The position numbers and the translations under genes were made by a program. Of a stretch of DNA of 64,000 nucleotides, positions 2,647 to 50,489 are shown in pieces. Location of the stretch: contig NC_135803.1 of NCBI RefSeq assembly GCF_964213995.1, positions 105,524,001-105,588,000 of the forward strand, in the 5' to 3' direction. A model generated the notes under the pieces. That model was not told the origin of the DNA and ran no database searches. It saw only the letters and a program-made list of their open reading frames with translations. This DNA comes from Mustelus asterias (taxonomy: Eukaryota). Position 1 is the first letter of the stretch. Every line of letters starts with the position of its first letter.

Positions 2647-3342
2647 CACTGTCTGAGGATTCAACAAAAGGGCATCACAACTGAGGCTGTTGGGCCTCTC
2701 ATAAATATATTTATTCACCTCCAAGTCTCTCACCTTCCTGACTTGGAAATTTTTAAAAAATATACTTTTCCAATTCAATCAAATCAAATCCAATTCAGAG
2801 TCTCAACAAAGAACAAAGAACAATACAGCACAGGAACAGGCCCTTCGGCCCTCCAAGCCCGCGCCGCTCCCCGGTCCAGGATTGAATCCTGAATCCAGGA
2901 TCCCCGCCCAATTTTCCAGCCTATCTACATACCAATATCCTATCCACCGAGCTGTCCCTCACAGCTACGATGCTTTGTTCATTACAACCTATTAACTTAC
3001 CCCCACCCCCCCATTCCAGACCATGTGATCTCCAGGGAGAGGCGAAAACCCAGAGTGAAAAACCCCAGGGCCAATATGGGGAAAAAAAATCTGGGAAATT
3101 CCTCTCCGACCCCCTGAGGCGATCGAAACGAGTCCAGGAGATCACAATGGCCCCGATCGGAAAATGCTTCCCAACCCTAGTCATTTCCACTTCCACGAAC
3201 ACCATATGAATTCCCTGCCCCCGAGACAGGTTCCCAACTATCCGCAGTCTCACTCTGTACTGGCACCAGCAAGATGATCATAGAATGAAGCCTTGAAACG
3301 AGAAACCAGGAACAATTAGCCCGCGCCGCTCCCTGGTCCAAA

Positions 3343-6225
3343 CTAGACCACTCTTTTGTATCCCTCCATTCCCACTCCGTTCATATAGCTGTCTAGATAA
3401 GTCTTAAACGTTCCCAGTGTGTCCGCCTCCACCACCTTGCCCGGCAACACATTCCAGGCCCCCACGACCCTCTGTGTGAAATATGTCCTTCTGATATCTG
3501 TGTTAAACCTCCCCCCCTTCACCTTGAACCTATGACCCCTCGTGAACGTCACCACCGACCCAGGGAAAAGCTTCCCACCGTTCACCCTATCTATGCCTTT
3601 CATAATTTTATACACCTCAAGTAAGTCTCCCCTCATCCTCCGTCTTTCCAAGGAGAACAACCCCAGTTTCCCCAATCTCTCCTCATAACCAAGCCCCTCC
3701 ATACCAGGCAACATCCTGGTAAACCTCCTCTGTACTCTCTCCAAAGCCTCCACGTCCTTCTGGTAGTGTGGCGACCAGAACTGGACGCAGTATTCCAAAT
3801 GCGGCCGAACCAACGTTCTATACATCTGCAACATCAGACCCCAACTTTTATACTCTATGCCCCGTCCTATAAAGGCAAGCATGCCATATGCCTTCTTCAC
3901 CACCTTCTCCACCTGTGACGTCACCTTCAAAGATCTGTGGACTTGCACACCCAGGTCCCTCTGCGTCTCTACACCCTTTATGGTTCTTCCATTTATCGTG
4001 TAGCTCCTCCCTACATTATTCCCACCAAAATGCATCACTTCGCATTCATCAGGATTGAACTCCATCTGCCATTTCCTTGCCCAAATTTCCAGCCTATCTA
4101 TATCCTTCTGTAGCCTCTGACAATGTTCCTCACTATCTGCAAGTCCTGCCAGTTTTGTGTCGTCCGCAAACTTACTGATCACCCCAGTTACTCCTTCTTC
4201 CAGATCATTTATATAAATCACAAACAGCAGAGGTCCCAATACAGAGCCCTGCGGAACACCACTAGTCACAGGCCTCCAGCCGGAAAAAGACCCTTCCACT
4301 ACCACCCTCTGTCTTCTATGACCAAGCCAGTTCTCCACCCATCTAGCCACCTCCCCCTTTATCCCATGGGATCCAACCTTTTTCACTAGCCTACCATGAG
4401 GGACTTTGTCAAATGCTTTACTAAAGTCCATATAGACAACATCCACGGCCCTTCCTTCGTCAACCATTTTAGTCACTTCTTCAAAAAACACCACCAGGTT
4501 TGTGAGGCATGACCTCCCTCTCACAAAACCATGTTGACTATCGTTAATGAGTTTATTCCTTTCTAAATGCGCATACATCCTATCTTTAAGAATCTTCTCC
4601 AACAACTTCCCCACCACGGACGTCAAGCTCACCGGCCTATAATTACCCGGGTTATCCTTCCTACCCTTCTTAAATAACGGGACCACATTGGCTATCCTCC
4701 AATCCTCTGGGACCTCACCTGTGTCCAGTGACGAGACAAAGATTTGCGTCAGAGGCCCAACGATTTCACCTCTCGTCTCCCTGAGCAGCCTTGGATAGAT
4801 TCCATCAGGCCCTGGGGATTTGTCAGTCTTTATATTCTCTAACAAACCTAACACTTCCTCCTTTGTAATGGAGATTTTCTCCAACGGTTCAACACTCCCC
4901 TCCGAGACACTCCCAGTCAACACATCCCTCTCCCTTGTGAATACCGACGCAAAGTATTCATTTAGGATCTCCCCTACCTCTTTGGGCTCCAAGCATAGGT
5001 CCCCACTTTTGTCCCTGAGAGGTCCGATTTTTTCCCTAACAACCCTTTTGTTCCTAACGTATGAATAAAATGCCTTGGGATTCTCCTTAATCCTGTCTGC
5101 CAAGAACATTTCGTGACCCCTTTTTGCTCTTCTAATTCCCCGTTTGAGTATTTTCCTACTTTCATTATACTCCTCCAGAGCTCCCTCCGTTTTTAGCTGC
5201 TTGGACCTAACATACGCCTCTCTTTTCCTTTTGACCAGTCCCTCAATTTCCCTGGTTATCCACGGTTCTCTAATCCTACCCTTCCTATCCTTCTTTTTTA
5301 CAGGCACATGCTTGTCCTGTAGCCCTAACAACCGTTCCTTAAAAGACTGCCACATACCAGATGTGGATTTACCCTCAAACAGCCTCTCCCAATCAAGAGC
5401 TGCCAATTTCTGCCTGATCCCAATAAAGTTAGCCTTCCCCCAATCCAACACCTTACCCTTGGGACACCACTCATCCTTTTCCATCACTATCCTAAAGCTA
5501 ACAGAATTGTGGTCACTATTTGCCACATGTTCCCCAACCAAAACTTTGAAGACCTGACCGGGCTCATTCCCCAGCACCAGGTCCAGTATAGCCCCCTCTC
5601 TAGTTGGGCTGTCCACATATTGTTCCAACGAACCCTCCTGTACACATTTTACAAATGTCTCACCATCCAGAGTCCCTGCCCTCAGCGATTTCCAGTCTAT
5701 ACCAGGGAAATTGAAGTCTCCCACTACAACAACCCTATATTTCCTGCACCTATCCAGTATCTCCTGACATATCCATTCTTCCACTTCCCTTGGGCTGTTG
5801 GGGGGCCTGTAGTACACCCCCAACATAGTGACTGCGCCTTTCCTGTTTCTAAGCTCCACCCAGAGTGACTCGCTACACGACTCCTCCGAATTGTCCTCCC
5901 TCTGCACCGCTGTAATATGCTCTCCAACCAATACCGCTACTCCCCCACCTCTTTTGGCCCCTCCTCTGTCTCGCCTAAAACACTTGTACCCTGGAATATT
6001 CAGCTGCCAGTCCTGTCCCTCTTTCAACCAAGTCTCTGTCACTGCAACCACATCCAAATTCCTCGTGCGCATTAAGGCCCCAAGTTCGTCTGTTTTACCT
6101 GCTACGCTCCTTGCATTGAAGTATAAGCACTCCAGACCCCCAGGCTCAGTGAGGTCGTCCTCCCCCAGAGTGCTCTTCTTCTTTGCCAGCCTTGTCCCAG
6201 CCCCAAGCTCGTCCCCAGCCACCAC
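3343..6225 (-). CDS. CR1 ORF2: AP endonuclease + reverse transcriptase
   Basis: EN motifs YFNARS, VTETW, GVYYRPP, VVGDFN, SDH; RT motifs YRPVSLTS, QHGF, DFSKAFDKV, GVPQGSVLGP, KFADD; no stops. Confidence 0.95.
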   Translation of the reverse strand: MVAGDELGAGTRLAKKKSTLGEDDLTEPGGLECLYFNARSVAGKTDELGALMRTRNLDVVAVTETWLKEGQDWQLNIPGYKCFRRDRGGAKRGGGVAVLVGEHITAVQREDNSEESCSESLWVELRNRKGAVTMLGVYYRPPNSPREVEEWICQEILDRCRKYRVVVVGDFNFPGIDWKSLRAGTLDGETFVKCVQEGSLEQYVDSPTREGAILDLVLGNEPGQVFKVLVGEHVANSDHNSVSFRIVMEKDEWCPKGKVLDWGKANFIGIRQKLAALDWERLFEGKSTSGMWQSFKERLLGLQDKHVPVKKKDRKGRIREPWITREIEGLVKRKREAYVRSKQLKTEGALEEYNESRKILKRGIRRAKRGHEMFLADRIKENPKAFYSYVRNKRVVREKIGPLRDKSGDLCLEPKEVGEILNEYFASVFTRERDVLTGSVSEGSVEPLEKISITKEEVLGLLENIKTDKSPGPDGIYPRLLRETRGEIVGPLTQIFVSSLDTGEVPEDWRIANVVPLFKKGRKDNPGNYRPVSLTSVVGKLLEKILKDRMYAHLERNKLINDSQHGFVRGRSCLTNLVVFFEEVTKMVDEGRAVDVVYMDFSKAFDKVPHGRLVKKVGSHGIKGEVARWVENWLGHRRQRVVVEGSFSGWRPVTSGVPQGSVLGPLLFVIYINDLEEGVTGVISKFADDTKLAGLADSEEHCQRLQKDIDRLEIWARKWQMEFNPDECEVMHFGGNNVGRSYTINGRTIKGVETQRDLGVQVHRSLKVTSQVEKVVKKAYGMLAFIGRGIEYKSWGLMLQMYRTLVRPHLEYCVQFWSPHYQKDVEALERVQRRFTRMLPGMEGLGYEERLGKLGLFSLERRRMRGDLLEVYKIMKGIDRVNGGKLFPGSVVTFTRGHRFKVKGGRFNTDIRRTYFTQRVVGAWNVLPGKVVEADTLGTFKTYLDSYMNGVGMEGYKRVV

Positions 6226-6266
6226 ACTTATAGACCTAATAGTTTGATCCCCACCCCCCTGCCATA

Positions 6267-6914
6267 CTAGTTTAAACCCCCCCGAACTGCATTAGCAAAG
6301 CTCCCAGCCAGGATATTTGTGCCCTTCCAACTTAGTTGTGACCCCTCCCTCTTGTACAGGTGCCATCCTCTCCTGAAAACCTCCCATTGGTCTATGAAAA
6401 TAAAGCCCTCCCTCCTGGACCAGTCCTTTAGCCAGGCATTCATTTGAACCAACTCCCTATTCTTATCCTCACTGGCACGAGGCATTGGGAGCAGCCCAGA
6501 GATGGCCACCCTAGTGACCCTACTTTTTAACCTATTTCCCAACTCCCTGAATTGCTCTCTTAGGACCCCCCTACTCTTCCTATCTACGTCATTTCCACCA
6601 ATGTGTATAATGACATCCGTTTCTTTATCTTCCCCTTTTAAAATGCCTCCTATCCGCTCGGAGACATCCGTGACCCCAGCACCAGGTAGGCAGACTACCA
6701 TCCTGGAGTCCCGTTCGCCCCCACAGAATCGCCTGTCTGTCCCTCTAACTGACGCATCCCCCACCACTATCGCTCTCCTAACCCCTCTCTTCCCTTTCCG
6801 GGCCACAGAGCCTGACTGTGTGCCAGTGACCTGGTCACTGTGTCTTACCCCTGGAGAGGCACACTCCTCCACACTATCTAAAACAATGTACCTGTTTTGG
6901 AGTGGGACAACCAC
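6267..6914 (-). CDS. CR1 ORF1 C-terminal part, SGNH-esterase-like domain
   Basis: PLQNRY, IVVGD.SVRG, VCLPGA, HIGGND, SGLLP and ending GLN*, typical of CR1 ORF1. Confidence 0.85.
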   Translation of the reverse strand: MVVPLQNRYIVLDSVEECASPGVRHSDQVTGTQSGSVARKGKRGVRRAIVVGDASVRGTDRRFCGGERDSRMVVCLPGAGVTDVSERIGGILKGEDKETDVIIHIGGNDVDRKSRGVLREQFRELGNRLKSRVTRVAISGLLPMPRASEDKNRELVQMNAWLKDWSRREGFIFIDQWEVFRRGWHLYKREGSQLSWKGTNILAGSFANAVRGGLN

Positions 6915-6940
6915 AGGAGAACGTGCAGACTATATTAACA

Positions 6941-7213
6941 AGTTGAGACATTTCAGATCCAGGCTGACAAGACAGGGCAAGCGACCAAACCACCCTGTCC
7001 TGGGCCTGATCTACATGAGCCAAGCTGATTGGAGAAGGGGGAGGTTCCTCCTCCAAGACTTGGGCTCATTTGCATCTTAGCCAAAAGGCCGAGATGCCGC
7101 TTTTAAAAATTGCTTCATATGAAACACATGAAGCCTCAGCGTAACCTAATGACCTCAACCAAGTGCAGGCGATCCATACTACACTTGATCTTAGCCAAAA
7201 GACCGAGAAGCGA
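6941..7213 (-). mobile_element. Short element headed by U2 snRNA 5' end (Keno/Utopia/SINEU-like, non-autonomous)
   Basis: 7176-7213 matches U2 nt 2-39 (1 mismatch); second U2 copy (nt 7-27) at 7074-7094; gactatattaaca repeated at 6928-6940 and 7212-7224. Confidence 0.7.
7176..7213 (-). pseudogene. U2 snRNA 5' fragment (nt 2-39)
   Basis: Reverse complement TCGCTTCTCGGTCTTTTGGCTAAGATCAAGTGTAGTAT matches the vertebrate U2 5' end; the rest of U2 is absent. Confidence 0.9.
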
Positions 7214-7224
7214 CTATATTAACA

Positions 7225-7400
7225 TTTCTGCATCATTACTGGGTCAAAATGCTGGAACTCCTTATTTAGCAGCACTGTACCAATACCTTCCCCACACTGA
7301 CTGCAGCTGTTCAGGAAAGGTGGGCCAGCAACAGCTCCTCAAGGACAACTAGGGATGAGCAAAAAAAATGCCAGCCTTTCCAGCGACGCCCACAACCAGA
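7225..7400 (+). mobile_element. LINE 3'-end fragment (same family as the 3' end at about 37150-37310)
   Basis: ctgggtcaaaatgctggaactcc...ctcctcaaggacaactagggatg...cagcgacgcccaca. Confidence 0.6.
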
Positions 7401-8110
7401 GAAGGACTGAAAGTAATTACATCTGATGAAGTCGTTCTGGATGGCTGCCAGTCAAATTTGAGCCAGCTGACCAATTAGTATTAAAAATGCAAATTTCTGG
7501 AAATTCCTAGTATCTGCAAAAAGAAAAGGCAGGTGACAATGTTGCAGGTGTGCACCCTTTATGAATCTGTTATTCTTTCAATTTTAGCCAGTCAGCATTA
7601 TCCAGGTGCTGAACAGCTCAAGCTAACTTGTTACAGTTTATATCTGACCCCATAGATTGGCTCCATCCTTCCTGACTGGCACATATCCTCCTAACAACAA
7701 GATTTGAAAATTAAAATTGGAAAAGGATCACGGTCTTTATGACAAAGCCTTTCTTAATTTGCCCAGAGAGGTAGGACACAGTGATATAAATGGATAGATG
7801 CACTGATTAACTCATTTGCAAGTAGCATCATCCAAGTGATGATGCACAAATCATCTCCTCCCCAAAGAAGTGCTTTGCTTCTTGAAGGCAGAAGCCCAAC
7901 AAAGTATGAAAGCAATAACCTTGCCAAAAAGAGCAACTGTTTATTCACATACATTTGATAACTTCAGTTTTTCTTCACAGTTCCAAAAGTCCAAATAGCA
8001 TCAAGAGGGACTGGAGCATCTCAACAACTTAAAACTGCGAGGCTTCCATTATTCAGATGCAGCTTTGATTTTTTTTATTAAGGCACATTATAGCTGAAAA
8101 TCATTGTAGT

Positions 8111-22109: not shown

Positions 22110-22331
22110 ACAGTAAGAAGTTTAACAACACCAGGTTAAAGTCCAACAGGTTTATTTGGTAGCAAAAGCCACACAAGCTTTCGGAGCTCCAAGCCCCTTC
22201 TTCAGGTTCTTCACTCACCTGAAGAAGGGGCTTGGAGCTCCGAAAGCTTGTGTGGCTTTTGCTACTAAATAAACCTGTTGGACTTTAACCTGGTGTTGTG
22301 TTTACCCCAGTCCAACGCCGGCATCTCCACA
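22110..22331. mobile_element. Palindromic Penelope-type non-autonomous element with hammerhead ribozyme motifs
   Basis: Near-perfect inverted arms of about 80 bp; 13-bp TSD tacaggggaggtc (22097-22109, 22332-22344). Confidence 0.85.
22216..22252 (+). ncRNA. Minimal type I hammerhead ribozyme motif
   Basis: CAC-CUGAAGA-A-GGGGC(uugga)GCUCC-GAAAGCUU^GUG: conserved core, stem II, 3-bp stem I, palindromic AAGCUU minimal stem III. Confidence 0.7.
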
Positions 22332-40385: not shown

Positions 40386-40607
40386 ATGTGGAGTTGCTGG
40401 CATTGGACTGGGGTAGGCTCAGTAAGTAGTTTCACAACACCAGGTTAAAGTCCAACAATTCGGTAGCACGAACTTTCAGAGCGCTGCTCCTTCATCAGGT
40501 GAGTGCAAATCCTGCACTCACCTGATGAAGGAGCAGCATTCCGAAAGCTCATGCTACCAAATAACTTGTTGGACTTTAACCTGGTGTTGTGAGACTACTT
40601 ACTGTGC
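40386..40607. mobile_element. Palindromic Penelope-type element with hammerhead motifs
   Basis: Inverted arms; 11-bp TSD cattatcattg (40375-40385, 40608-40618); CTGATGA..GAAAGCTC on +, mirror copy on -. Confidence 0.85.
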
Positions 40608-49460: not shown

Positions 49461-50489
49461 CTAGGTAGTGAGAGCAGAAGGAAAGATAACAAGAAAAATC
49501 AAATAGTGGTTAAATCTAGCAAAGAAGATAGCACACATGTCAATCTTAAAATTGCAGTTAAAATAAATTTTACATGACCTCAAGAAAAAACAGATATTCC
49601 CTCATTAAAAATGTAACCAAACCTTCCGTTAATTGTCATTGAAAACATGAATAAGATCATTAAAACAGCAAATGGATACTATAACATACAGACCACAGCA
49701 CAATTTCTTACATAACAAGATTCTTATATTATTTGGGATATGCAAATTAGATATTGCTGAAAGAAATCACAAGAATACCAAATTTTAAAGGGAACAACTA
49801 TTTATTCTGCATGAGAAGAGGGTGCTGATTGGTTGTCAAGTGGACTCTGATTGTAGAGATGTTGCCATGGAGAATACAACAGGGAACAGTTAACTGTCAA
49901 ACCTTTGTTTAAATTCAAATCAGGCAAATCGACTTTGATTGGTAAAGGCATCGCCATAGGGGTGAACCAGAGAATAGCTGTCCCTCAAGCATTTGTTTAA
50001 TTAGAAAAGGTGTAATGCAGCCCACCTTCACTGGTCAATATACGCACTGGGATTCTTACAGTTCCACGAGTTATAAGATTGACCTTATCAGCATTCTTGT
50101 ATGTAGGGGCTGAACTATTTGCTCTGCACAAGCTTTCTATGGGATAATGGCTACCCTGATCAGCTCATTGCTAGGTATATATCACGCAACTCATGAATGG
50201 GCCTAAGGCCACCACATTCATTCCTGAAAGATGTCCAGTCTACCTCTGCTTACTCTGGAAGTGGGAGGTATCTCAGAAATTTGAGCTACAGATGTTGGTG
50301 CTGATGCTATGCAGAGGCATTATGAGTAGTATTCTCCAGTAACAGGATCCTGCTGTCAAGCCAGATAGACACTCTGCCTATCACACAGAGTAGTAATTTG
50401 ATACATGAGTTTCAGTGCCAGTGTGACGCCAGGTATACAGGCCAAATGTCCCAATGACTGGTGGATCGCAAACAACGCATCCCTTCAGC

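Follow-up and report, generated by a model that had tools for sequence, protein, structure and literature searches.

snRNA-Headed SINEs and U2-Targeting LINEs

The described families that come closest to the shark element treated here are the crocodilian SINEU-1 through SINEU-3 (Kojima 2015, PMC4494074). As set out in the accessible parts of that paper, they have in common with it a U2-derived head, the repeated addition of snRNA pieces, an A-tail, a length below 500 bp, and thousands of copies, as well as tandem insertions around one duplication, the lack of a LINE with the same tail, internal T-runs that speak against Pol III, and a mobilizer (in the shark, a probable one) from the Keno-related Tx1 group. 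Those parts of the paper record no SINEU outside crocodilians and leave transcription open. SINEU prefers a Mariner element (Mariner-N4_AMi), whereas the preferred site of the shark SINE is U2 nt 38/39 itself; furthermore, the shark SINE, unlike SINEU, has copies that lie under U2 upstream flanks and carries an anti-U2 segment after its head. With its U2 head, non-coding length of less than 500 bp, A-tail, high copy number, and connection through shared targets to a Tx1-clade LINE, the shark family fits SINEU as a class defined by structure.

Keno and Utopia (PMC4640811) resemble the elements described below in their 3' junction at U2 nt 39 and in the ~20-bp U2 duplications found at some insertions. 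However, they are autonomous LINEs, unlike the non-autonomous shark SINE, and the paper, in which Keno is marked by the U2 nt 39 junction together with an APE endonuclease, contains neither the word non-autonomous nor the word shark. The SIDEs of Drosophila R2 (PMC3414825, available in part) are, as the shark SINE may be, non-autonomous riders of a site-specific LINE that rely on transcription of the target gene. Yet SIDEs are internal deletions of R2 or R1 with a self-cleaving ribozyme, whereas the shark SINE keeps the 5' end of a host RNA, is dispersed genome-wide, and has a body for which no LINE origin was seen. A SIDE-type internal-deletion derivative does not fit, as the 5' and 3' ends of the SINE show no significant homology to those of the partner LINE. 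Finally, the chimeric snRNA retropseudogenes U6-L1 and U2-Alu, as treated in the accessible parts of PMC4494074, also join the 5' part of an snRNA to other sequence by reverse transcription; these are one-off products, whereas the shark unit has been copied thousands of times and has subfamilies.

No shark snRNA-headed SINE was found in the literature covered, Repbase, Dfam, and most subscription papers lying outside the search; the accessible parts of PMC5786205, PMC5499810, PMC7245038, and PMC5381603 likewise contain none. To this extent, the suggestion made in an initial sequence-only reading of the locus, that the element may represent an undescribed SINEU-like family of sharks, has stood.

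A U2-Headed SINE Split by a CR1 Element

Within the window (the whole 64,000-nucleotide stretch of Mustelus asterias DNA that was analyzed), the SINE and the features described with it lie on the minus strand. The full-length unit is ~325 bp plus an A-tract and is non-coding. Its head derives from U2 snRNA nt 1-39 (7176..7214), with the first base altered at the junction; U2 nt 2-39 had been placed at 7213-7176, and it was found there with one change relative to the genome's own U2 gene, C13, which is read as T at 7202. In a reference SINE copy, the head is U2 nt 1-39 with 100% identity to that gene. After the head comes an anti-U2 segment (element nt 47-70; 7145..7168), a diverged inverted copy of U2 nt 13-36 that is predicted to pair with the head through a 12-bp core and two 5-bp extensions. 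It is followed by hairpin 2 (10 bp; 7112..7134), which is shorter in older subfamilies, and by a T-run/A-run linker (7101..7111), which is similar to an Sm site without the closing G.

A second U2 piece (nt 4/7-27, stem-loop I; 7072..7097) is closed by an added GCAT/ATGC stem and probably once headed a shorter element of greater age. Its nt 7-27 at 7094-7074, the octamer ATGCAAAT at 7075-7068, and CCAATCAG at 7032-7025 all lie where the sequence-only reading had put them. The octamer straddles two predicted stems. CCAATCAG is contained in hairpin 4, which has a variable loop (7015..7069), and hairpin 5 (6954..7013) combines a long stem with a variable loop. When the window element is compared with the genome's own U2 gene, matches are confined to U2 nt 1-39 and 4-30. 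A variant U2 gene was ruled out, given an Rfam score of 43 bits, which is below the 46-bit gathering cut-off, the lack of a U2 3' domain, and a flank that is an old repeat rather than an snRNA upstream flank.

The left half of a terminal hairpin (6937..6953) ends in TGTT at the point of a CR1 insertion, and TGTT is found at each breakpoint of the split SINE. The element had been thought to end at 6941, but nearly all of 29 sister loci run past the equivalent of this position into a ~50-nt tail and then an A-tract. In the window, this SINE copy has its 3' tail and T/A-tract displaced to 2750..2804, which rules out a 3'-truncated copy. The intervening sequence (2805..6920) is a 5'-truncated CR1-type LINE with a GDSL-esterase ORF1 piece and an intact 982-aa ORF2 frame at 3343-6291. 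Its homology to sister copies, which are ~100% identical, begins at 6920. The 361 bases of its 5' end have 2,447 candidates in the genome, with ~100% identity in all 40 that were scored, and this CR1 belongs to a very young subfamily.

The 13-bp repeat that flanks the unit is exact (6928-6940 and 7212-7224), as first described, but it is not a target-site duplication of the SINE. Between the SINE and the CR1 are 16 bases (6921..6936) that derive from neither element; the first part is a copy of the SINE's own 5' junction, and the last part matches a common tRNA-type SINE. We infer that this is a templated filler at the CR1 5' junction. Because the filler repeats the 5' junction of the SINE, it creates the 13-bp repeat, and because the SINE tail lies beyond the CR1 at 2804-2750, the repeat is junction filler rather than a target duplication. 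An empty site leads to the same rejection: the older host repeat whose upstream half is at 7215..7420, and which resumes from 2749 downward, is continuous across 7215|2749 on comparison with the empty copy L089. Thus, the insertion of the SINE left no visible duplication in the window. The window copy is a dispersed, inactive copy that was later split by CR1.

Elsewhere in the window, near-perfect inverted repeats at 22172-22252 and 40482-40538 give sub-threshold Rfam microRNA hits and are probably small DNA-transposon or palindromic remnants.

A Dispersed Family with Subfamilies

A search of the genome with the element yielded 2,476 candidates; among the matches listed, 41 of 42 are 97-100% identical over 261-273 bases, and they lie on many contigs. 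A 25-base tail word occurs exactly 4,706 times, which sets the copy number at 4,706 at least, as only exact matches to this one word were counted. A tail word of the older type has 2,201 exact occurrences, a set that overlaps with the 4,706. In addition, exact words of U2 nt 1-33 number 890, whereas a word spanning the U2 target site without interruption matches exactly 58 times. The copies are 80-99% alike; those picked by position have 80-98% identity to a young reference copy, and several linker types occur. The 5' start lies within nt 1-15 in 21 of 30 such copies (at nt 1-2 in eight), and within nt 1-13 in 25 of 30 copies of the older type, 11 of these loci being common to both sets.

The flanks of the copies seen are unrelated to one another. 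By a strict test, an exact target duplication of at least 8 nt is present in 34 of 70 copies, half of the loci having been selected for full length, and absent from the other 36; dispersed copies often carry target duplications of 8-23 bp. Tandem trains are common, the longest having seven copies. All 30 older-type tails examined are attached to SINE bodies, and no LINE bears the SINE tail among them. Parts of the non-U2 body are covered by contigs from three other organisms, assembled from runs that are presumably RNA, which shows relatives there, not transcription; a further run, X2, gave no coverage, possibly a false negative.

Taken together, these results make it virtually certain that the U2-headed retroelement family is real, that is, multi-copy, dispersed, and non-autonomous, as the sequence-only reading had supposed before copies were counted. 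The unit has been copied thousands of times with subfamily structure and is not a set of independent chimeras.

An older relative is present at L031 (C1:112.24 Mb). There the second U2 piece extends as far as nt 94; next come a Tx1-like ORF2 end, which is duplicated, and then the 3' half of the SINE.

U2 Gene Clusters and a Keno-Type LINE

On contig C24, the U2 genes of this genome form two arrays, one of 1,833 bp and one of 8,035 bp, and a 448-bp variant unit is found on contig C21. At L065/L066 is a 5.6-kb LINE with a CCHC ORF1, an APE endonuclease (PF03372), a reverse transcriptase (PF00078), and a zf-RVT domain (PF13966); it starts with U2 nt 1-33/35, and in the C21 and C24 clusters its 3' end adjoins U2 nt 38/39. 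Because of its APE endonuclease, this LINE is Keno-type and not Utopia, an assignment made by Pfam domains and the U2 3' junction. Utopia was also rejected as a partner on other grounds: in the C21 and C24 clusters, every LINE end before U2 nt 39 matched one of two Keno-type families. The Keno tail word occurs 320 times. In the 30 Keno tails that come first by position, all on contigs C1-C2, no U2 sequence comes next; thus, Keno is only weakly site-specific in this genome. Dispersed Keno copies carry duplications similar to those of the SINE.

The clusters themselves are complex. At G000:C24:44.815-44.935 Mb (L066, L069), a tandem unit of 8,035 bp, repeated ~16 times, consists of one intact U2 gene and another U2 piece into which a full-length Keno is inserted, and here Keno has been amplified as part of the U2 array. 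At G000:C21:28.05-28.08 Mb (L137-L140), the variant U2 gene, whose 3' part is 82-84% like that of the major gene, lies in a 448-bp unit that is heavily occupied by Keno and contains inversions. Several units of the major U2 array of C24 (L061-L064) are less similar (~91% identity), and the 5' region of U2 in them is altered or duplicated in part. A second Keno-type family (L067, L069, L070, L142) has a 3' end ~75% like that of the first and likewise stops before U2 nt 39. Finally, inverted U2 heads or an inverted SINE fused to a Keno tail are found at L102 and L121, as expected of twin priming.

Association of the SINE with Keno

The SINE is found at the same U2 site as Keno. A search for copies followed by U2 revealed six exact junctions of the SINE tail to U2, at the nt 38/39 site, plus one that is decayed; three of these seven are in the U2 gene clusters (C21, C24) and four in dispersed retrocopies. 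On C21, one SINE is joined seamlessly to the upstream flank of the variant U2 gene. The major array on C24 closes with a unit that runs from the U2 upstream flank through a SINE, a truncated Keno, and a second SINE to the U2 3' part. Of the copies in the clusters, two are joined seamlessly to the upstream flank of the gene. The three cluster copies are 81-94% like the young reference copy and are not of the window's linker type; consequently, the retrocopy on C14 is the one place where a source for the youngest subfamily was seen. The retrocopies on C1, C12, and C14 contain the SINE and flanking U2-cluster sequence inside one target duplication. In those on C1 and C14, the copied sequence takes in spacer that precedes U2 +1, a sign of read-through or template switching and not of starts at the U2 promoter.

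Away from the U2 genes, the SINE is present at 8 of 30 Keno-tail loci, compared with none of nine CR1 loci and none of 12 U1 loci, the latter drawn from few clusters. The chance of at least seven SINE-holding Keno-tail loci is 4e-11 at 4,706 copies and 3e-4 at 50,000. At L118, the order is SINE, duplication, Keno, duplication, SINE. Given the shared U2 nt 38/39 site and such mixed trains, it is likely that Keno mobilizes the SINE in trans. The proposed link to Keno is thus upheld by the common site and by these loci, but it does not extend to the sequence of the 3' part, for which a Keno origin is not supported. The SINE body gave no significant alignment to either UTR of the main Keno, to the second Keno's 3' UTR, or to the Tx1 end at L031 (54-228 of 300 shuffles were as good), and what the SINE and Keno have in common is limited to a few bases just ahead of the A-tract. 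Similarly, the targeting of U2 that had been proposed does occur, but it is the rare case, with six exact junctions versus thousands of copies, most SINE and Keno copies being dispersed.

Predicted Folding of the RNA over Its U2 Head

The 274-nt unit is predicted to fold at -124 kcal/mol, compared with -84 for shuffles (z -7.55; 0 of 200 shuffles). The sequence-only reading had described a 12-bp helix between the U2 head and the first bases downstream of it, covering most of the branch-point recognition sequence. The core of this description was recovered: U2 nt 25-36 pair with 7168-7157, including three G-U pairs, and four of the six branch-point-pairing bases (33-38) are covered. However, 7 nt separate the U2 part from the start of the partner, and pairing continues beyond the core to a total of 22 pairs, spanning U2 nt 11-36. 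The bases masked in this predicted helix take in the region of U2 that pairs with U6, along with most of the bases (33-38) that pair with the branch point. The duplex of the head with the anti-U2 segment is predicted at -38.7 kcal/mol, and none of 1,000 shuffles was as good, whereas the duplex formed with U2's own downstream bases is no better than shuffles (590 of 1,000).

In 45 aligned copies, chosen for spread out of 75, 98.5% of the cells of the 22-pair helix are paired, while the loop between its strands varies freely; for the whole predicted structure, 95.3% of cells are paired, and column variation is 0.13 at unpaired and 0.08 at paired positions. In hairpin 5, compensatory changes swap G-C for A-U at two pairs between subfamilies. 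Covariation support for the structure is no more than suggestive: seven pairs show a two-sided change, a number equalled by 72 of 500 shuffles. In the mask helix, changes are confined to one side of the pairs and are transitions, which mutation favors in any case.

Keno of the C24 and C1 type also shows a 5' fold-back on its U2 head, using a sequence different from that of the SINE (3 of 1,000 and 3 of 500 shuffles; z -2.0). The fold-back is not significant in three C21 Keno copies whose 5' end is shorter (297-352 of 500 shuffles) or in an older deleted Keno copy (919 of 1,000). The masking of the U2 head may be a selected function, the case for and against appearing evenly balanced.

Transcription, Mobilization, and Alternative Explanations

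Taken together, these findings make it fairly likely that the non-coding U2-headed family is copied in trans by Keno, with copies in U2 genes serving as sources driven by the U2 promoter and with an RNA that folds over its own head. In this model, the ORF2 protein of Keno would reverse-transcribe the SINE RNA, priming on the A-tract, mostly off target and occasionally at U2 nt 38/39. An insertion in a U2 gene would become a new source copy, since transcription from the external U2 promoter begins at U2 +1, the position where the family has its 5' end. The fold-back would keep the chimeric RNA from pairing with U6 or with branch points, and for this reason the RNA would be tolerated. As for the individual parts, the T4-T5 runs in the head and linker depart from the pattern of a Pol III SINE, which has no internal T-run, and argue against Pol III transcription; we lean slightly toward sources that would be driven by the U2 promoter. 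More tentatively, the SINE and Keno may both be self-renewing parasites of the U2 gene, which would insert at nt 38/39, adopt its promoter and first ~35-39 bases, and mask the head, so that rare on-target hits would found subfamilies that then fill the genome off target.

A promoter within the SINE is another source of transcription to be considered, the sequence-only reading having noted that the octamer is that of snRNA distal enhancers. According to this explanation, an snRNA-type promoter in the 3' half (the octamer plus a PSE) would drive the next copy of a tandem train. The octamer is indeed present in 39 of 45 copies, trains of up to seven copies put ~185 nt between it and the head that follows, close to its position of -196 in U1 genes, and 10 bases match the major U2 gene around -63 (E 0.72). 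However, the octamer is only as conserved as the rest of the SINE body, and no PSE-like match in the SINE rises above background in comparison with the U1 and U2 upstream regions of the genome. Both the octamer and the 10-base match fall in predicted RNA stems, and the latter changes together with its pairing partner in older copies and lies at the wrong distance from the next head. Consequently, the octamer has no support as part of a promoter, and an own promoter is very improbable. With respect to the snRNA genes themselves, a perfect octamer is absent from the 300 bp upstream of the major U2 unit, and the U1 genes (L145-L149, C8 arrays) have the octamer at -196, in one cluster with a single mismatch.

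The remaining alternatives concern the origin of the head and the identity of the mobilizer. Keno or a related Tx1 element might move the SINE while flanking promoters transcribe it by read-through, template switching onto U2 snRNA supplies the U2 heads anew, and insertions in U2 genes arise only as by-products. This model was proposed for crocodilian SINEU, for which recurrent 5' addition of U1/U2 pieces is also reported (PMC4494074, accessible parts), and the double head in L009, the internal second U2 piece, the retrocopies with upstream spacer, and the small number of copies in U2 genes speak for it. On the other hand, the head-body junctions recur as fixed linker types common to several copies, a segment fitted to pair with U2 nt 11-36 is found in every subfamily aligned, and the joins to U2 upstream flanks are seamless; this explanation therefore appears unlikely, if still credible. 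That another, non-specific L1/Tx1 family does most of the dispersal, leaving Keno only the few U2-site copies, would account for the many off-target copies, the lack of a tail in common with Keno, the excess of SINE tail words over Keno tail words (4,706 versus 320), and the older relative at L031, which is paired with a different Tx1-like 3' end. Yet Keno itself is mostly dispersed, with similar duplications and no U2 after any of the 30 tails, and the SINE is present at eight of those 30 loci, so this too is improbable. Last, the SINE could be an internally deleted, SIDE-like form of an older Keno family now gone from the genome, given that both start with U2 followed by an anti-U2 stretch and have a similar few bases before the A-tract. 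The lack of any significant alignment to the Keno UTRs or to the Tx1 end at L031 (again 54-228 of 300 shuffles) makes such an origin extremely unlikely.

Implications

The transcription of SINEU has been puzzling, for snRNA promoters lie outside the transcribed region, and a young and abundant shark family with copies located under U2 upstream flanks, at the site used by Keno, makes the question directly testable. If the SINE and Keno are indeed self-renewing parasites of the U2 gene, this would answer how promoterless snRNA-headed SINEs come to be transcribed. The shark family would, in addition, stand for a separate, second origin of SINEs with snRNA heads and for a non-autonomous partner for Keno, as well as for RNA masking as a means by which snRNA chimeras are tolerated. 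In addition, the young SINE copies are usable as insertion markers in sharks.
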